Assembly (NCBI RefSeq): GCF_013315695.1
Contig: NZ_CP054353.1
Length of the DNA: 64,000 bases
From: Escherichia coli
Lineage (GTDB): Bacteria; Pseudomonadota; Gammaproteobacteria; Enterobacterales; Enterobacteriaceae
Strand: one strand, 5' to 3'
Both the position numbers and the translations under genes were made by a program. The notes below the pieces were generated by a model, which ran no database searches, had not been told where the DNA came from, and worked only from the letters and a program-made list of their open reading frames with translations. This document shows, in pieces, positions 1,292 through 44,141 of this stretch. The stretch's first letter is position 1; each line of letters opens with the position of its first letter.

Positions 1292-1417
1292 TTTAAGTCG
1301 AACACAATAAAAATTTAATTCAGCCTTCGTTTAGGTTACCTCTGCTAATATCTTTCTCATTGAGATGAAAATTAAGGTAAGCGAGGAAACACACCACACC
1401 ATAAACGGAGGCAAATA

Positions 1418-1513
1418 ATGCTGGGTAATATGAATGTTTTTATGGCCGTACTGGGAATAATTTTATTTTCTGGGTTTCTGGCCGCGTATTTCAGCCACAA
1501 ATGGGATGACTAA
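1418..1513 (+). CDS. mgtS: small inner-membrane regulatory protein MgtS (31 aa)
   Basis: ATG at 1418; reads MLGNMNVFMAVLGIILFSGFLAAYFSHKWDD then TAA; below the 60-aa ORF-track cutoff, found by direct reading. Confidence 0.8.
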   Translation: MLGNMNVFMAVLGIILFSGFLAAYFSHKWDD

Positions 1514-1543
1514 TGAACGGAGATAATCCCTCACCTAACCGGC

Positions 1544-1579
1544 CCCTTGTTACAACTGTGTACAAGGGGCCTGATTTTT
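1544..1579 (+). terminator. putative rho-independent terminator downstream of mgtS
   Basis: inverted repeat ccccttgta / tacaagggg followed by a T-run. Confidence 0.5.
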
Positions 1580-1588
1580 ATGACGGCG

Positions 1589-1686
1589 AAAAAAAACCGC
1601 CAGTAAACCGGCGGTGAATGCTTGCATGGATAGATTTGTGTTTTGCTTTTACGCTAACAGGCATTTTCCTGCACTGATAACGGATC
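1589..1686 (-). ncRNA. mgrR: MgrR small RNA (PhoPQ-regulated); ends approximate
   Basis: minus strand reads GCAGGAAAATGCCTGTTAGCG...CCGCCGGTTTACTGGCGG followed by a U-run (hairpin terminator); matches MgrR as I remember it; convergent with mgtS. Confidence 0.55.
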
Positions 1687-1731
1687 GTTGACACAGTAGC
1701 ATCAGTTTTCTCAATGAATGTTAAACGGAGC

Positions 1732-2622
1732 TTAAACTCGGTGAATCACGTTTTGTTCGTCAATAAACATGCAGCGATTCCTTCCGGTTTGCTTACCCTC
1801 ATACATTGCCCGGTCCGCTCTTCCAATGACCACATCCAGAGGCTCTTCAGGAAATGCGCGACTCACACCTGCTGTCACGGTAATGTTGATATGCCCTTCA
1901 GAATGTGTGATGGCATGGTTATCGACTAACTGGCAAATTCTGATACCTGCACGACATGCTTCTTCATCATTAGCCGCTTTGACAATAATGATAAATTCTT
2001 CGCCACCGTAGCGATAAACCGTTTCGTAATCGCGCGTCCAACTGGCTAAGTAAGTTGCCAGGGTGCGTAATACTACATCGCCGATTAAATGCCCGTAGGT
2101 ATCATTAACCAATTTAAATCGGTCAATATCCAACAACATTAAATAAAGATTCAGAGGATCAGCATTGCGTAACTGATGATCGAAGGATTCATCAAGAACC
2201 CGACGACCCGGCAATCCCGTCAGAACATCCATATTGCTACGGATCGTCAGCAAATAAATTTTGTAATCGGTTAATGCCGCAGTAAAAGAAAGCAACCCTT
2301 CCTGAAAAGCGTCGAAATGCGCGTCCTGCCAGTGATTTTCAACAATAGCCAGCATTAATTCCCGACCACAGTTATGCATATGTTGATGGGCAGAATCCAT
2401 TAGCCGAACGTAAGGTAATTCATCGTTATCGAGTGGCCCCAGATGATCAATCCACCGACCAAACTGGCACAGTCCATAAGAATGGTTATCCGTTATTTCT
2501 GGCTTACTGGCATCTCTCGCGACCACGCTGTGAAACATACTTACCAGCCACTGGTAGTGGGCATCGATAGCCTTATTGAGATTTAACAAGATGGCATCAA
2601 TTTCCGTTGTCTTCTTGATCAT
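1732..2622 (-). CDS. dgcZ: zinc-sensing diguanylate cyclase DgcZ (YdeH), GGDEF domain
   Basis: RYGGEEF motif in the C-terminal half; 296 aa when started at MIKKTTEIDAILLN; synteny. Confidence 0.9.
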   Translation of the reverse strand: MIKKTTEIDAILLNLNKAIDAHYQWLVSMFHSVVARDASKPEITDNHSYGLCQFGRWIDHLGPLDNDELPYVRLMDSAHQHMHNCGRELMLAIVENHWQDAHFDAFQEGLLSFTAALTDYKIYLLTIRSNMDVLTGLPGRRVLDESFDHQLRNADPLNLYLMLLDIDRFKLVNDTYGHLIGDVVLRTLATYLASWTRDYETVYRYGGEEFIIIVKAANDEEACRAGIRICQLVDNHAITHSEGHINITVTAGVSRAFPEEPLDVVIGRADRAMYEGKQTGRNRCMFIDEQNVIHRV

Positions 2623-2876
2623 TGCCACTCCTTTTTCACAGTTCCTTGTGCGCGCTATTCTAACGGGAGAAAAGCAAAATTACGTCAATATTTTCATAGA
2701 AATCCGAAGTTATGAGCCATCTCTGAGATAACATTGTGATTTAAAACAAAATCAGCAGATAAAAAAGTGTTTAATTCTATAAATTAACTCTGCATTATCG
2801 CAATTAAAAGGATGACAAATAGCATAACCCAATACCCTAATGGCCCAGTAGTTCAGGCCATCAGGCTAATTTATTT

Positions 2877-3269
2877 TTATTTCTGCAAATGAGTGACCCG
2901 AACGACGGCCGGCGCGCTTTTCTTATCCAGACTGCCGCTAATGTTGATCATCTGGTCCGGCTGAACTTCTCGTCCATCAAAGACGGCCGCAGGAATAACA
3001 ACATTAATTTCACCGCTCTTATCGCGAAAAACGTAACGGTCCTCTCCTTTGTGAGAAATCAAATTACCGCGTAGTGAAACCGAAGCGCCATCGTGCATGG
3101 TTTTTGCGAAATCAACGGTCATTTTTTTTGCATCGTCGGTTCCGCGATAGCCATCTTCTATTGCATGAGGCGGCGGTGGCGCTGCATCCTGTTTTAAACC
3201 GCCCGGGTCATCTGCCAACGCATAAGGCATGACAAGAAAACTTGCTAATACAATGGCCTGAAATTTCAT
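2877..3269 (-). CDS. ydeI: periplasmic OB-fold (YgiW/BOF family) protein YdeI
   Basis: 130-aa ORF with N-terminal signal peptide ([19 protein letters not shown]); synteny. Confidence 0.8.
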
Positions 3270-3634
3270 ACTGACTCCTTAATTGCGTTTGGTTTGACTT
3301 ATTAAGTCTGGTTGCTATTTTTATAATTGCCAAATAAGATTACTGCCAATTGTTATAAGGCATTTAAAATCAGGCAACTAGCTGTCAAATATTCAGAGAA
3401 TTTAACTCACTAAAGTTAAGAAGAAGATTAAAGAGTCTTAAACATATTTCAGAATAATCAGATTTATAAATTTGAAAATTATTATAACGGAAGGGTATAC
3501 AAAAAAAGTAATTTTGCTGGCGACTGCGAAACGGCATTCGCATTAGCGGTGAAGTTTGCCCTCGCCCAGCTGCTGCAATTACTGCTATAACGAGGCTGGT
3601 CTGGCGATAAATCCAGGCCAGCCATTGGTTGTGT

Positions 3635-5680
3635 TTATACGTTCAAGCCACGATGTTGCAGCATCGGCATAATCTGAGGTGCCTTACCGCGCCATTGTCG
3701 ATACAGGCGTTCCAGATCCTCGCTGTTACCTCTGGAAAGGATCGCCTCGCGAAAACGCAGCCCATTTTCACGCGTTAATCCGCCCTGCTCAACAAACCAC
3801 TGATAACCATCATCGGCCAACATTTGCGTCCACAGATAAGCGTAATAACCCGCGGCATATCCGCCACCAAAAATATGGGCGAAATAACTGCTGCGATAGC
3901 GTGGCGGTATAGCAGGAAGATCCATATTTTCCGCCACCAGCGCCCGCAATTCGAAATCATCGACATCCTGCATTGCTTCGTTTTCTTCCAGGCAATGCCA
4001 GCGCATATCGAGAAGTGCGGCGCTAAGCAGTTCGCTCATCTCATACCCTTTATTGAACAGGCTGGCATTACGCATTTTCTGTTGCAGTTCGTCAGGCATT
4101 GCTGCCCCGCTCTGATAATGCCGGGCGTAGCGAGCGAATACCTGCGGATGCGTTGCCCAGTGTTCGTTGATTTGCGACGGAAATTCGACAAAATCACGCG
4201 GCGTGTTGGTGCCGGAAAGCGTGGCATAACGCTGGCGGGCAAAAAGGCCGTGCAGCGTATGACCAAATTCATGGAATAAGGTTATTACATCATCCCAGAG
4301 TAACAACGCAGGCTCCCCAGCAGCGGGTTTCTGATAATTGCAGACGTTATAAATTACCGGGTGCGTTTCATTCAGCGTTGATTGCTCAACAAAATTGCCC
4401 ATCCATGCGCCGCCGCTTTTTGAATCACGGGCGAAGAAATCACCGTAAAATAACGCCAGCCCCACACCATTATGATCAAAAATTTCCCACACACGAACGT
4501 CAGGATGGTAGACAGGAATATCAAAACGTTCGACAAACTTAATACCGAAGAGCTGATTCGCAGTCCAGAATACGCCTTCATTCAACACCGTGTTTAATTC
4601 GAAATAAGGCTTGAGCTGCGCTTCATCGAGATCGAATTTATCACGTCTTACCTGCTCGGCATAAAATGCCCAGTCCCACGGCTGCGCGCTAAACCCGCCC
4701 TGCTGCTTATCGATAACCGCCTGTATGGAGGCTAATTCATCGCTCGCACGTTGACGCGCCGCTGGAACAATTTCCCGCATAAAGTTGAGCGCTGCTTCTG
4801 GCGTTTTTGCCATCTGATCGGCGATTTTCCATGCGGCATAATGAGGAAAACCAAGCAGTTTCGCCTGCTGCGCGCGGATCTCCACCAGACGTTGAATGAT
4901 AGCGCGGGTATCATTGGCATCATTTTTTTCCGCTCGCATCCAGCCCGCAGTAAACAGTTTTTCACGCGTCGCACGATCGCGCATTTCGGCAAGCGCCGGT
5001 TGTTGGGTGGTATTCAGCAGCGGAATCAGCCATTTGTTATCCAGACCTTTCTCGCGAGCCGCCTCTGCCGCCAGCACAATCTCTTGCTCACTCATTCCTG
5101 CCAGCTGCGCGATATCGTTCACAACCAGACCGCCGGATTTATTTGCTGCCAGTAACCGCTGGTTAAACTGGCTGGTCAGGGTCGCAGCTTCTGTATTCAG
5201 TACTTTTAATTTTGCTTTATCAGCTTGCGCAAGTTTGGCTCCGGCAAGGACAAAACGTTGATGAATCACCTCCACCAGGCGGATGGATTCACTATCAAGC
5301 CCCAGGGATTCACGGCGCTGCCAGACAGCATCTACCCGCGCGAATAATTCACCGTTCAGATAGATATCATTAGCCAGTTCCGCCAGTTCAGCGGAAAACT
5401 GTTCATCAAGACGCTGTAATTCATCATTGGTATGCGCCGCAGTCATCGCAAAAAAGACGCTGGTAACGCGGGTAAGTAATTCTCCGCTTTGTTCCAGTGC
5501 CAGAATAGTATTGTTGAAATCAGGCGTTTGCGAGTTAAGCGCGATGGCAGTAATTTCTGCCCGCTTTTGCAGCATTCCCTCATCGAATGCCGGGCGATAG
5601 TGATGATTGGCAATTTGATCAAAATGGGGAGCCAGATACGGCAGTGTGCTTTGCACAAGGAAAGGATTCATTGTTGTCAT
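3635..5680 (-). CDS. dcp: dipeptidyl carboxypeptidase II (M3 family zinc metallopeptidase)
   Basis: HEFGH zinc-binding motif; 681 aa when started at MTTMNPFLVQ; the ORF-track start is 22 codons further upstream. Confidence 0.9.
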   Translation of the reverse strand: MTTMNPFLVQSTLPYLAPHFDQIANHHYRPAFDEGMLQKRAEITAIALNSQTPDFNNTILALEQSGELLTRVTSVFFAMTAAHTNDELQRLDEQFSAELAELANDIYLNGELFARVDAVWQRRESLGLDSESIRLVEVIHQRFVLAGAKLAQADKAKLKVLNTEAATLTSQFNQRLLAANKSGGLVVNDIAQLAGMSEQEIVLAAEAAREKGLDNKWLIPLLNTTQQPALAEMRDRATREKLFTAGWMRAEKNDANDTRAIIQRLVEIRAQQAKLLGFPHYAAWKIADQMAKTPEAALNFMREIVPAARQRASDELASIQAVIDKQQGGFSAQPWDWAFYAEQVRRDKFDLDEAQLKPYFELNTVLNEGVFWTANQLFGIKFVERFDIPVYHPDVRVWEIFDHNGVGLALFYGDFFARDSKSGGAWMGNFVEQSTLNETHPVIYNVCNYQKPAAGEPALLLWDDVITLFHEFGHTLHGLFARQRYATLSGTNTPRDFVEFPSQINEHWATHPQVFARYARHYQSGAAMPDELQQKMRNASLFNKGYEMSELLSAALLDMRWHCLEENEAMQDVDDFELRALVAENMDLPAIPPRYRSSYFAHIFGGGYAAGYYAYLWTQMLADDGYQWFVEQGGLTRENGLRFREAILSRGNSEDLERLYRQWRGKAPQIMPMLQHRGLNV

Positions 5681-40222: not shown

Positions 40223-40438
40223 CAGAATCCTTCCGGATAATTAGCTCTCCCCTTTAAGGGACCATCCCTCTTATCCCTGCGCGCTACTTAAGTATTTTTG
40301 ATTCTATTCCGGCACCGTCCAGAACTTCAAATGCGTTGAAAATAAAAACAAAAACCCGCCGAAGCGGGTTAAGTGCGGGTGCGTTGAGAATGCCTGCCAC
40401 ATCAGAGGTGGCGAGGGATTTCTCCCTCGCCGGGTCTC

Positions 40439-40594
40439 TTACTCCTCAGGTTCGTAAGCTGTGAAGACAGCGACCTCCGTCTGGCCGGTTCGGATTCGTA
40501 CCTCGCAGAGGTCTTTCCTCGTTACCAGTGCCGTCACTATGACGGTTAAACAGATGACGATCAGGGCGATTAACATCGCCTTTTGCTGCTTCAT
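40439..40594 (-). CDS. hokD: Hok-family membrane toxin HokD (RelF), 51 aa
   Basis: minus strand reads MKQQKAMLIALIVICLTVIVTALVTRKDLCEVRIRTGQTEVAVFTAYEPEE; below ORF-track cutoff. Confidence 0.85.
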   Translation of the reverse strand: MKQQKAMLIALIVICLTVIVTALVTRKDLCEVRIRTGQTEVAVFTAYEPEE

Positions 40595-40665
40595 AGCCTG
40601 CTTCTCCTGTCAACGCAAAGCAGAAGTGTCACCTTCGGTGCGAAACAGAGATGTCATGCTTTGGT

Positions 40666-40953
40666 TCAGAGAATGCGTTTGACCGCCTCGCTATATACTT
40701 CCGAGCGTTCTCTTTTCCCAACAGAAATCACGAAAACGACAACTTTCTCGTCTATAACCTGGTATACAAGGCGATAGCCTGAAGACCGGAGCTTAATCTT
40801 GTAACAATCAGGCATACCACGGAGCTTGTTTGCTTCAATCCGGGGTGACTCAAGTACTTCAACCAGCTTCTTTTTCAACTGTTCACGTACCGTCGAGCCC
40901 AGCTTTCGCCATTCCTTTAGTGCCCGCTCGTCAAAATCCAGAAAATACGCCAT
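40666..40953 (-). CDS. relE: RelE mRNA-interferase toxin
   Basis: 95 aa; MAYFLDFDERALKEWRKLGSTVREQLKKKLVEV... Confidence 0.9.
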   Translation of the reverse strand: MAYFLDFDERALKEWRKLGSTVREQLKKKLVEVLESPRIEANKLRGMPDCYKIKLRSSGYRLVYQVIDEKVVVFVISVGKRERSEVYSEAVKRIL

Positions 40954-41192
40954 CAGAGTTCATCCAGCGTCACACGTACTGGCTTAGGATTACGAAGCCG
41001 TTCTTTCACTATCTCCACAAGTTCAGCATCTTCATCACTCAGGAGTGTCTGTTTGAACGGCAAGCGTTCATTGTCAGCGATATACTCGAGCATGAGACGA
41101 AGCGCTTCAGAAGGAGTTACACCCATTTTTTCAAGCGCGGCGTAAGAACGCGCTTTAAGTTCATCGTCAATACGCAGGTTAATGCTACCCAT
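40953..41192 (-). CDS. relB: RelB antitoxin
   Basis: 79 aa; MGSINLRIDDELKARSYA...; overlaps relE start. Confidence 0.9.
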   Translation of the reverse strand: MGSINLRIDDELKARSYAALEKMGVTPSEALRLMLEYIADNERLPFKQTLLSDEDAELVEIVKERLRNPKPVRVTLDEL

Positions 41193-41216
41193 GTCTTACA
41201 CCTCTTGTAATTACAA

Positions 41217-41522
41217 ATGTCATTACAAGTATCGCACTACAACATGCTTAGGGCAAGTCACGAAGGAAGTCAGAAAGTAGTCGTAAGAACGGTGATCACT
41301 GTCCGCTTTGTGCCAGGAGCAGCCATTGCTAAGTCCATCCTGTATTGTGCAGGTCAGCTCGTTTTTAAAGAGTCCGGCCATCATCTTACTGGTACAGACA
41401 CCATATACTTTGTGACGGTCAGGCTACATATGCACAACTCAACTTATTCATCTATTTTTTGCTTTAGCATGTCAGTGTTGCTTTCTCGTCGGCGGGTGAG
41501 CGGTGACCTGACCTGTCGATAA
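41217..41522 (+). CDS. ydfV: hypothetical prophage protein (YdfV-like)
   Basis: 101-aa ORF divergent from relB; name by synteny only. Confidence 0.45.
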   Translation: MSLQVSHYNMLRASHEGSQKVVVRTVITVRFVPGAAIAKSILYCAGQLVFKESGHHLTGTDTIYFVTVRLHMHNSTYSSIFCFSMSVLLSRRRVSGDLTCR

Positions 41523-41724
41523 AGGAACGTAACACGTTTTATGCAACACCCGCATGCGGCAGAAAATTATTGCCGAACGTTTACCCCTGTCAACAAGCTT
41601 TACTTTCTGAGGCGCGCCAGCCCGCGAGGAAAACAATCTGAACATCAAACAATTAATGACACAAGAAATACGATTAAAGATTTTTTTGTGCATGCCGATA
41701 GTGCTTTTTTAAAAGGAGAAATCT

Positions 41725-42057
41725 ATGTCTGTCACAATTCAGGGAAATACCTCAACCGTTATTTCAAACAACTCCGCCCCGGAAGGAACATCAGAAATAG
41801 CCAAAATCACAAGACAAATTCAGGTGCTGACTGAAAAGCTTGGGAAAATCTCATCGGAAGAGGGGATGACGACACAGCAGAAAAAAGAAATGGCTGCATT
41901 GGTACAGAAGCAAATTGAAAGCCTCTGGGCTCAACTGGAGCAGTTGTTAAGGCAGCAGGCAGAGAAAAAGAATGAAGACGCGACAGTTCAGCCTGATAAA
42001 AAAGAAGAGAAAAAAGACGATACAAATACCGCTGGCACCATTGATATTTACGTCTAA
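41725..42057 (+). CDS. flxA: FlxA
   Basis: 110 aa; MSVTIQGNTSTVISNNSAPEGTSEIAKITRQIQVLTEKL... Confidence 0.85.
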   Translation: MSVTIQGNTSTVISNNSAPEGTSEIAKITRQIQVLTEKLGKISSEEGMTTQQKKEMAALVQKQIESLWAQLEQLLRQQAEKKNEDATVQPDKKEEKKDDTNTAGTIDIYV

Positions 42058-42071
42058 GTGACAGCCGTATT

Positions 42072-42095
42072 GTGGCCCTCATCGGGCCACTTTTC
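42072..42095 (+). terminator. rho-independent terminator after flxA
   Basis: gtggccc tcatc gggccac followed by TTTT. Confidence 0.55.
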
Positions 42096-42493
42096 GCCAT
42101 CAGCCTTTTCTTTAAAGACATATTATCTTTGTATCATTTCTGATAGTTAACATTACAAGATATAAGTAATGGACGCACTCCCAATTAGTCTATTTAAATC
42201 GCCACGAGTTTAACTGACAACCCATGATCAATTATGAATTGCAACTATTTCTGTAGTCACTTTTGTGGGGACAGTCCACAAAACTGCCAACTTCCGCTTC
42301 TTGCTCTTAGCGGACATTAGCATAGGCTATTTACCATAACGCCTCATTACGCGCACCGCCCAGACTGACTCAGCGCGTTTCTGGCATATCCCCGGTAAAA
42401 CAAGTAACAAACCACCCGAAAATGAACACCAGAAACGCGACTTAAGAATCTACCCTATGAATGGATATGCACTCAACCGAATCGATCTTGGTT

Positions 42494-43807
42494 TCAATCT
42501 TTTTTATCGGGATCAGGCTTCTTTTTAGGTAACTTCGGGGGCTTAACTTGCTGATGACTTTGCGTTCGGCGCGTAAGCCAGGGATGGTCAGCTTTAGGTT
42601 TAACATAGTATTTTGAGCGTAAATCAATACGGGCATTATCCACTCGTTCATGGACACTCTTTTCATCATCCAGTGGTATAGGCTCCGGGCCATCAACATA
42701 CTTTTCCCAGCCCAGCGCTTTCCCGTCATACAGAACGTTAATTTCACCGTCAAAGTTCTCGCATACAGTAACAACCGAATGCCTAAGTCGATATCCCCGG
42801 CCCTCACTGCGTACCTGAAACGCACTGCTTTTGTACTGGAAAGTGAGATTTTTAGACAGAACGCGCTTCGCCTGTAGGCTGAAGATATAACCCAGTTCCT
42901 CTTCAGAATGGTGCACATCAAGATGAGCATTATCAGTAGTACGAGGCGACGTAGCGAACCGGTTGTTATAGGCTTCAATAAAGGTCGGCAACCATGCATT
43001 TGCTGTTTCAATATCACTGATATTCTGAAGCCGCATTTCTTTGACCAGCCTGTCCTGTAGTGTCTGATTGGCGCGCTCTACCCGCCCTTTTGCCTGCGGG
43101 CTGTTGGCATGGATTGGCTCGATGCCCAGTGTCTTTATCGCACGAGTGAACTGGGTCAGCTCACCTTCCCGCTCTGGGTTATTTACCCTGAATATACTGT
43201 GTCTATCAGAGTAGAGAGCGAGCGGTACGCCATGATCATTAAGGTAACCCCGGAGGGTTTCCATGTAAGCCCGGGTTGTTTCAGCAGGCACAAAACGCAA
43301 CGCCATCAACGCACTGGTGGCATCATCAATGAAAACGATCAGTGTACATCTGGGGCCTCGATTTTCAAACCAGTCATGAGGTGAGCCATCAATCTGGATC
43401 AGTTCACCGTAAGATGGTCGTCGCATGCGGCGTTGATATATACGGGCAATTTTACGACGGCGTTCACGCCATAACCCCTCTTCTATCATCCACTTTCTGA
43501 GAGTTTCAACGGATAAAGATAAACCGTGTATCTCGCGCAATTTTTCGCACGCAAACGTAGGTCCAAAATCAGCGTAACGGCCTTTGAGGAGTGAAATTAC
43601 TGTTGCTCTGAATTCAGTAGAAAAGGAATTATTAGGACGCTTTCCACGTCGGTGGGAAACCAGAGCAGAAGGCCCTTCATTTCTATACCGTTGCACCAGA
43701 CGTTTAACCTGCCGAATAGAAATGCCAATGCGTGCCGCAGCTTGTTCCTGAATAATCTGAAGTCGGTGGAGTTCCTTATGACTCATCGTAACAGTCTCTT
43801 TGATCAT
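42494..43807 (-). CDS. DDE integrase-core (rve-like) transposase/integrase-like protein
   Basis: 437 aa; N-terminal HTH-like region then catalytic core (...LIQIDGSPHDWF...VFIDDATS...LYSDRHSIF...QAKGRVERANQTLQDRL...); no terminal inverted repeats found by eye. Confidence 0.6.
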   Translation of the reverse strand: MIKETVTMSHKELHRLQIIQEQAAARIGISIRQVKRLVQRYRNEGPSALVSHRRGKRPNNSFSTEFRATVISLLKGRYADFGPTFACEKLREIHGLSLSVETLRKWMIEEGLWRERRRKIARIYQRRMRRPSYGELIQIDGSPHDWFENRGPRCTLIVFIDDATSALMALRFVPAETTRAYMETLRGYLNDHGVPLALYSDRHSIFRVNNPEREGELTQFTRAIKTLGIEPIHANSPQAKGRVERANQTLQDRLVKEMRLQNISDIETANAWLPTFIEAYNNRFATSPRTTDNAHLDVHHSEEELGYIFSLQAKRVLSKNLTFQYKSSAFQVRSEGRGYRLRHSVVTVCENFDGEINVLYDGKALGWEKYVDGPEPIPLDDEKSVHERVDNARIDLRSKYYVKPKADHPWLTRRTQSHQQVKPPKLPKKKPDPDKKD

Positions 43808-44141
43808 GAAAAATCCCCCAGAGAATTGTCTGGGGACATTTTAGAATGGTTCAAAGGGGACATTACAGCTTGGTGTTAACAATAGCCTGCTTCTCCGTGC
43901 CTTTCGGCACGTAAGAGGCTAACCTACATGTGTCTAGCATGAAATTGGCCTCAGATTAATGTTAAGCGTCTTGCAGGACGCGTAATGTTAACTGGGGCTT
44001 TTCTCTATCTGCCGTTGGTGTCCATGCCCGAGGCAGATAGCCTCAAGCACCCGCAGTCATTCTACTTAACTAAGATTTCCCCGCAAACCGTTTTTGTCCA
44101 GCACAGTAAATATCCAACTAAACCAATGGAGTTCGCTGTAT

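Follow-up and report, generated by a model that had tools for sequence, protein, structure and literature searches.

The 437-aa DDE gene carried by this Qin-type prophage belongs to a larger unit. Positions 40608..43881 of the window (the whole 64-kb stretch of Escherichia coli DNA that was analysed) constitute, very probably, a cargo transposon of the IS1202 family and ISEsa1 type: a 3,274-bp mobile unit that runs from IRL to IRR, has a preference for hok initiation regions and duplicates 15 bp of its target. The proposed layout, starting from the transposase side, is IRL, transposase, a cer-like Xer site, a variable cargo slot (here ydfV' and flxA), relB-relE and IRR. The transposase and IRL are those of a known IS, ISEsa1, of a known family. 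The element has defined ends, flanking duplications, empty sites, independent insertions and cargo variants; its mobility is suggested by sequence comparison.

The transposase gene

The gene (42494..43807, minus strand) is an open reading frame of 437 aa with an ATG start, as first described, and it encodes a DDE transposase of the IS1202 family (ISNCY), ISEsa1 type. The NCBIfam model NF033594, 'ISNCY family transposase', matches the whole protein at 455.7 bits (E 1e-136; curated cut-off 250 bits), which agrees with the original prediction of an insertion-sequence-type transposase. An IS481-like affiliation had also been proposed, but the IS481 model NF033577 yields 124.9 bits, below its cut-off of 224 bits, and the family is IS1202/ISNCY. 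The expected HTH-like amino terminus is found at residues 20-107, where Pfam HTH_29, HTH_32 and HTH_28 match; the integrase core is detected as a weak, sub-threshold rve_3 match at residues 229-282 (24.3 bits; cut-off 26.5). Pfam and NCBIfam searches find no tyrosine or serine recombinase domain in the protein.

The catalytic residues D140, D201 and E244 are intact, and an alignment with a canonical IS of 49% identity keeps D140, DD161-162, D201, E244 and Q251 (E+7). The published IS1202-family signature is DDE with an internal DD and Q at E+7 (bioRxiv 10.1101/2022.12.17.520857): a further two conserved D lie between D1 and D2, and the residue at E+7 is Q rather than K/R. In other genomes, this gene bears the RefSeq name 'IS1202-like element ISEsa1 family transposase', as does a 446-aa protein that is 98% identical.

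Relative to the 446-aa plasmid versions, the window transposase lacks nine in-frame residues, QESINRHIT, in the first HTH region. The corresponding 27-bp deletion is flanked by TCAGGA repeats (microhomology). Alleles with and without it are both present at the Qin site, which places the deletion after the insertion. The loss of nine HTH residues may disable DNA binding, and the window copy is perhaps inactive or immobile. A length difference of 27-28 bp between copies was considered as a long IS1202-type duplication; it is in fact this in-frame deletion. A putative hairpin, found in a scan for terminator-like structures (43815..43836, minus strand), lies directly upstream of the transposase start codon and overlaps the inner binding repeat of the left end.

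Does the gene serve the prophage, either as a second phage-encoded recombinase or as a domesticated transposase? It sits in the early region of a lambdoid prophage, and the K-12 remnant was historically annotated intK. However, sister prophages lack the gene and display a clean, precise empty site, more than 500 plasmids carry it, a transposase equivalog model is matched, and the gene is decaying in E. coli, with the 9-aa deletion here and a truncation in K-12. Such a role, which had been put forward earlier, is extremely unlikely.

Element ends, target duplication and the hok site

The left terminus at 43881 is fixed by at least six different flanks. When copies in different contexts are compared, the end reads ...GGTGTTAACA; the DNA beyond it is unrelated in loci L007 and L009 and is a diverged hok leader in other copies. 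IRL (TGTTAACACCAAGCTGTAATGTCCCC; 43856..43881, minus strand) and IRR (TGTCAACGCAAAGCAGAAGTGTCACC; 40608..40633, plus strand) are imperfect 26-bp terminal inverted repeats, identical at 19/26 positions, and both start with TGT. The left end has an inner repeat, AAAATGTCCCC, at 43832-43842, inward of IRL, and the motif AATGTCCCC occurs there twice, at 43856-43864 and again 24 bp further in at 43832-43840. Beside IRR, a second transposase-site-like motif, GATGTCAT, lies near 40650-40657. A TGTC core is found at positions 20-23 of both ends and again at 44-47 (IRL) and 45-48 (IRR). IRL and IRR thus have the ends of the IS1202 family, which are imperfect repeats of about 24-29 bp with a TGT start and a second internal site. 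IRR is identical in five other element-carrying loci and resembles the ends of distant family members, e.g. TGTCAACGCAAAGTTAAAATGTCC in L038. The transposase would bind two motifs per end, about 24 bp apart, and cleave at the TGT/ACA tips.

A 15-bp target-site duplication, ATAGCCTGCTTCTCC, abuts the element at 40593..40607 and, as a perfect match, at 43882..43896, and is present nowhere else in the 64-kb window. Read on the minus strand, it extends from the Shine-Dalgarno GGAG of hok through the 'AT' of the ATG; on the plus strand, the sequence beside the hokD start codon is CAT AGCCTGCTTCTCC followed by TGTCAACGCAAAGCAGAAGTGTCACC. Integration with a 15-bp staggered cut would account for this duplication. 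A copy-out/paste-in route is plausible, as ISKpn21 circles suggest such a route, via a circle, for the family (bioRxiv 10.1101/2022.12.17.520857).

Between 42000 and 44300, a scan for repeats yields no convincing terminal inverted repeat, so the original failure to find one near the gene is reproduced. The repeats escaped notice because the right end is not near the transposase gene; at 40608, it falls outside the interval 42100..44100 in which the ends were to be sought, 1.9 kb past the place first looked at. A direct motif reported on both sides of the gene, TGGGGACA, does occur exactly twice in the window (42266 and 43831, both on the plus strand), but this count is at chance level (1.57 expected; 47/100 shuffles give at least 2). 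The copy at 43831 belongs to the inner transposase-binding-type repeat of the left end; that at 42266 is probably coincidental, as it lies in cargo DNA that is missing from other versions of the element. Clear inverted repeats with a target duplication had been named as the mark of an ordinary known IS. Both exist, but the unit they delimit is not an ordinary known IS as catalogued.

Two other positions were considered for the right end. A pairing at 42144-42182 (AGTTAACATTACAAG...GTAATGGAC) aligns only with several gaps, lacks a duplication and does not occur in other versions; it is possibly a relic. The segment that separates the Xer core from the stop codon of the transposase gene (42380-42430) is homologous to the cer region of a ColE1-type plasmid and is not an end.

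The interrupted target is hokD (relF; 40439..40594, minus strand), an open reading frame of 51 aa that belongs to the NCBIfam Hok family and carries the RefSeq name hokD. It lies directly downstream of relBE and is separated from its own leader. The orphaned sok/mok leader of the interrupted locus (43881..44052, minus strand) abuts IRL and matches the full-length Rfam sok model RF01794 at 104.1 bits (gathering score 59), so that frame and leader are now about 3.3 kb apart with the element between them. Sister prophages that are free of the IS match the window from exactly 43882 on, and their hokD start codon is at that junction. The empty site in L040 and L041 reads ...TGCTGCTTC ATAGCCTGCTTCTCC TTGCCTTTCGGCACG..., i.e. 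the two window flanks joined via a single 15-mer. Of 5,426 complete E. coli genomes searched, 759 contain at least 80% of the interval 40500-44000, and many E. coli hok loci, among the evenly sampled matches listed, give a two-piece 212-bp match that spans both flanks.

Independent insertions are found on Enterobacterales plasmids, where versions of 3.3, 6.1, 12.8 and 14.1 kb have the same ends, each of them at a different hok-type site, of which 15-16 bp are duplicated. In L042, an IncF plasmid of Enterobacter roggenkampii, a 3,301-bp element has GGAGAAGAAGGCCAT / ATGGCCTTCTTCTCC on both sides; the IncHI2 plasmid pEC-IMP (L046) has a 6,093-bp element with the same 15-mer, GGAGAAGAAGGCCAT, and different hok flanks. 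Larger copies are those of E. hormaechei pC4_001 (L047; 14,068 bp, 16-bp duplication GGAGATGTATGGGTCC) and of a Phytobacter IncF plasmid (L049; 12,843 bp), where the 15-bp GGAGAAGTCAGCTAT is followed by ATGAAACTGCCACGAAG, the start of the plasmid hok. A deleted copy of 2,575 bp in a gut Enterobacteriaceae chromosome (L031) has a duplication that matches at 13/15 positions. Among IMG/VR prophage contigs with IRL, 38/41 have the Qin-type IRL flank of the window; the duplication is on both sides in 26 of these 38, and the second flank is unreadable in the other 12. The elements are 3,274 bp or 3,301-3,302 bp in length.

At hok loci the orientation is constant: IRL is always on the side of the leader and IRR on that of the hok frame, and the duplicated stretch always starts with the hok GGAG. 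The IRL flanks of L016, L024 and L084 are further hok-type leaders; a minority of IRL flanks are not hok (L009, L015, L018, L019, L043 and L050). This pattern points to a strong preference, specific in orientation, for the region where translation of hok-family toxin genes is initiated, and the transposase itself may recognize the site. Or did one ancient hok-locus insertion reach the other hok loci through homologous recombination in the hok/sok flanks, with no target specificity and perhaps no current mobility? The loci are 80-95% similar over hundreds of bases, and the mismatched flanks of L084 point to recombination between copies. Yet at each locus it is the local 15-mer that stands on both sides of the element, also at the divergent GGAGATGTATGGGTCC and GGATTCAC..CGGAT sites, and the flanks differ between loci right up to the junction whereas the element is 98-100% identical; recombination would bring the donor flank inward from the crossover point. 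A single insertion spread in this manner is very improbable, but homologous exchange between hok loci, rather than true targeting, could account for part of the repeated hok-site insertions.

Two copies do not fit a unit that extends from IRL to IRR and count against it: the flanking repeat of L050 is only 6 bp, and on plasmid NZ_AP022109 (L048) there is no IRR within 46 kb of the transposase module. The latter copy is rearranged and uninformative. In relatives of 79-88% identity (L017-L019), no IRR is present within 2.5 kb, and cargo genes follow. Distant relatives are compact IS elements with canonical right ends; the one in Castellaniella (L021, 49% identity) ends in ...CCGGTCATTTCTATTTAGCGTTGACA and has a 15-bp duplication, CCTGGCCGAGGAACT.

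By sequence, the insertion cuts hok from its promoter, mok and sok, and the ribosome-binding site is retained directly downstream of relE. The insertion would have split the prophage hok/sok locus in such a way that the sok/mok leader came to lie beside IRL and the hok frame, with a duplicated ribosome-binding site, after relBE. The split locus would thus explain the relB-relE-hokD ('relBEF') arrangement, and hok may have come under relBE control, in keeping with the reported co-transcription of relB-relE-relF.

Constant modules, variable cargo and a cer-like site

Alignment of four size classes displays two constant modules around a variable slot. Module 1 (40608-41320; 713 bp) consists of IRR, relE, relB and about 130 bp more, and is 99% identical in all size variants. 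It carries the toxin gene relE (40666..40953, minus strand; 95 aa, TIGR02385 RelE_StbE), which adjoins IRR, and the antitoxin gene relB (40953..41192, minus strand; NF008412 RelB/DinJ equivalog, 133 bits). In the size-variant alignment the module ends at about 41320, at boundary A, inside ydfV (RefSeq name; 41217..41522, plus strand), where there is a palindrome remnant, GTCCGCTT TGTGCCAG. Module 2 (42285/42299-43881) comprises the transposase gene, IRL and the cer-like site and is 90-99% identical. Its inner end, boundary B, is a palindrome, (T)TCCGCTT..AGCGGAC, at 42285..42328.

The slot between them holds ydfV'-flxA in the window and in L042 (flxA, RefSeq name, 41725..42057, plus strand). 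In the 6-, 12.8- and 14-kb versions, flxA is replaced by other genes: slot contents include a CDF transporter and cytochrome b in IncHI2 plasmids and ncrABCY, chrBA and others elsewhere, so that nickel/chromate resistance genes are aboard some plasmid versions. The slot edges are two related palindromes with arms GTCCGC(TT)/(AA)GCGGAC that resemble the transposase-binding motif, and in IncHI2 plasmids one of the two has ISEsa2 (IS110 family) in its loop. Are these palindromes relic inner ends, terminators or cargo-exchange sites? Each of the three may apply.

Boundary B has the appearance of a right end. Is the window element then a copy of the catalogued ISEsa1, an autonomous unit of 1.6 kb (IRL to ~42285) that makes no target duplication, with relBE-ydfV-flxA and the sequence at 40608 as unrelated neighbours? 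Harmer & Hall 2023 (PMC10132070) list ISEsa1 at 1,609 bp, with a TIR of 15/22, no target duplication and no known target. The inner boundary of module 2 is identical beside four different sequences; homology with three other cargo contexts starts at ~42285, which in these other contexts is the apparent 'right end' of a short element, and the first 8 nt there, TGCCAACT (TGCCAACG in L009), resemble the IRR tip, TGTCAACG. However, there is no inverted copy of IRL at ~42285, the binding motif found there has the wrong orientation and the wrong distance, and no context has duplications at this boundary. The outer IRR, on the other hand, is associated with 15-16-bp duplications in five loci, the empty site of the window is known and is reconstituted exactly, and the IRR-relBE module is found together with the transposase module in each of the four size variants examined. 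An autonomous 1.6-kb element is therefore unlikely here. The sharpness of the module-2 boundary in several unrelated contexts still speaks against the IRL-to-IRR unit, and an inner alternative end could also function.

Within module 2, 44 bp from boundary B and inside the element, lies a complete-looking cer-like Xer core, GGTGCGCGTAA-TGAGGCG-TTATGGTAAAT (XerC arm, 7-nt spacer and XerD arm; 42329..42357, minus strand). Each arm has one mismatch to the dif arms of PMC10132070 Table 8. The cer type is defined by 11-bp XerC and XerD arms that are 6-8 bp apart, as they are in the window site, and by an accessory stretch of about 180 bp, to which ArgR and PepA bind, on the XerC side. Accessory-type sequence beside the core runs to ~42440. 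At ~42460, TGCATATCCATTCA resembles the ArgR-box consensus and is a candidate ArgR box. The region is 84% identical over 111 bp, and identical in the core, to a 3.4-kb rop-encoding ColE1-type plasmid; this homology covers about 80 bp on the XerC side. The site is kept in the close relatives L015 and L025, has diverged in L018, and its core is missing in L019. The candidate site may serve to resolve host-plasmid multimers or transposition cointegrates. It was also considered as the target of the element, by analogy with the ISAba32 group, but the 165-bp 'cer-only' plasmid matches are remnants cut by IS26/IS66 and not empty sites, and the Xer site travels inside the element.

Relation to known elements and to the K-12 relBEF locus

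How does the window element compare with ISEsa1 itself? With the 27 bp that the window copy lacks added, the conserved module (42285/42299..43881) measures 1,610-1,624 bp, about the catalogued length, and the 15/22 inverted repeat is not reproduced at that boundary, the comparison being with the catalogue description. ISEsa1 has the same transposase lineage and the same left end, and a target duplication is likewise absent when the element is cut off at 1.6 kb. The unit described here differs in that it reaches beyond the catalogued right end to the IRR on the far side of relBE; its duplications measure 15-16 bp, its cargo ranges from 1.7 to about 12 kb, and hok sites are its preferred targets. 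If the 1.6-kb ISEsa1 is module 2 only, this explains why no duplication was found for it, and the puzzle of an element with neither duplication nor target would be resolved. The supplement of Siguier et al. places ISEsa1, without flanks, in the ISTde1 sheet of 15-17-bp duplications (bioRxiv 10.1101/2022.12.17.520857), in accord with the duplications described here.

The window element shares with the ISTde1 subgroup an HTH, a DDE core with internal DD and Q at E+7, TGT termini and duplications of 15-17 bp (bioRxiv 10.1101/2022.12.17.520857). These are 15 bp in the window, L042, L046 and L049 and 16 bp in L047; L031 has its 13/15 match, and L050, with 6 bp, is the exception. ISTde1 members are compact (1.3-1.7 kb) with no reported target preference, and L021 fits this description, whereas the window clade adds a cargo slot, a TA module and an Xer site. 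The ISAba32/ISAjo2 group, including the transporter IS tISKpn21, is of the same family and shows orientation-specific insertion beside a defined site, in some cases with a passenger gene (PMC10132070; bioRxiv 10.1101/2022.12.17.520857). Its duplications, however, are 5-6 bp, and insertion is 5 bp from the XerC arm of dif-like sites. In the window, the element targets the hok start: IRL adjoins the hok/sok leader rather than lying 5 bp from a XerC arm, and the only Xer-type site is internal, beyond the transposase gene. The start region of a toxin gene would be a second precise kind of target for a family known for targeting Xer sites.

A parallel from outside the family is offered by the Tn3-family TA transposons, which, according to Lima-Mendez et al. 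2020 (PMC7157771), also combine a type II TA pair that is constant in the transposition module with variable cargo and a resolution-type site. Their transposase is unrelated, however, and the window element is without a resolvase of its own; its candidate resolution site would need host XerCD.

In the openly available part of the searchable literature, ISfinder/TnCentral records apart, no prior description was found of the true right end, the 15-bp duplication, the constant relBE/Xer modules, the exchangeable cargo, the hok preference or the link to relBEF. A broader reading, to which we give a little better than even weight, is that ISEsa1 has been mis-delimited and represents the transposase module of widespread, hok-targeting cargo transposons of Enterobacterales. 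These would always carry relBE at one end and, beside the transposase, a cer-like site dependent on host Xer, and the cargo (flxA, CDF/cytochrome b or ncr-chr) would be swapped between two related palindromes. One insertion would have created the K-12 relBEF locus. Insertion at the hok ribosome-binding site would generally cut a resident type I toxin gene off from its native control and put it under the type II TA promoter of the transposon. Such transposons would be the vehicle of the ncr/chr nickel-chromate clusters on hundreds of clinical Enterobacter, Klebsiella and Citrobacter plasmids. In the split hok locus, the idea that one addiction module takes the place of another's control could be put to the test.

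The classic relB-relE-hokD operon of E. coli appears to have originated from this element, and the insertion would give this operon and the Qin genes ydfV, flxA and ydfW/intK a mechanistic origin. K-12 is identical to the window from hokD to position 42678, where its copy breaks. It keeps the left copy of the duplication, IRR, relBE, ydfV, flxA, the Xer site and, of the transposase gene, the final 185 bp; the left 1.2 kb, with most of the transposase and IRL, is lost, and this loss has hidden the transposon nature of relBEF and its Qin neighbours. The original prediction that Qin-type prophages retain integrase-like remnants holds for K-12, where ydfW (intK) is the last 49 codons of the transposase.

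Copies at non-hok and mixed targets

The IS1202-family cargo element also occurs away from hok genes. A full copy of 3,301 bp is present at a non-hok site in IMGVR_UViG_2912051188_000002 (1345-4645), where the flanking repeat is just 6 bp (CGCCTT) rather than 15 bp. In the Leclercia adecarboxylata chromosome (locus L022, ~2440-2500), the relE end, which carries the right inverted repeat (IRR), adjoins codon 105 of the transposase gene of a second copy; here the element has inserted into itself, giving a nested arrangement at a non-hok target. The two flanks of an IMG/VR copy (L084) disagree: beside the left inverted repeat (IRL) lies GGAGGGGCTATGATG, another hok-type leader, and on the IRR side the flank is Qin-type, as in the window's prophage. 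Because these flanks are mismatched, recombination between two copies situated at different hok loci is suggested.

The K-12 remnant and a Collinsella-labelled copy

The ydfW (intK) sequence of E. coli K-12, 49 aa in length, is exactly the last 49 codons (C-terminal) of the window transposase; the equivalent stretches are 42494-42643 in the window and 4795-4944 in the K-12 locus. Homology between the two stops at 42678, where ydfX/dicC start. A transposase 100% identical to that of the window is found in a 5.5-kb contig of a MAG labelled 'Collinsella sp.' (JAIJJM010000167.1). This contig holds the whole element with the same end flanks as in the window, and is probably mis-binned E. coli DNA.

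The cargo slot and its borders

Two related palindromes, with arms GTCCGCTT / AAGCGGAC, flank the variable cargo slot (window ~41296-41320 and 42285-42328), and are also present in the IncHI2 plasmid pEC-IMP and in the Enterobacter/Phytobacter IncF plasmids L047 and L049. ISEsa2, an IS110-family member, occupies the loop of the palindrome adjoining the transposase module in IncHI2 plasmids. In L047 and L049, versions of the element measuring 12.8-14 kb fully enclose two resistance clusters, ncrABCY for nickel and chrBA for chromate. A 9-kb amplifiable region has been tied to ncr-dependent nickel resistance, its flanks being noted there only as 'transposon-related elements' (PMC8545094). Within the flxA cargo of the window, AGTTAACATTACAAGATATAAGTAATGGACGC (42144-42182) looks like a gapped, inverted IRL copy and may be a relic end.

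Xer site and RNA-type motifs

Inside the element (42329-42440, minus strand) lies a cer-like XerC/XerD site together with sequence of accessory type; the core of this site is identical to the one on a small ColE1-type plasmid that encodes rop. Near 42460 is a sequence that may resemble an ArgR box. Directly before the transposase ATG, and overlapping the inner IRL repeat, is a GC-rich hairpin with a T-run after it (43815-43836, minus strand), which may block read-through or occlude the ribosome-binding site. Just downstream of hokD, a weak isrK-like Rfam match (40349-40430, minus strand) is sub-threshold, at 26.6 bits against a gathering score of 50, and probably represents chance.
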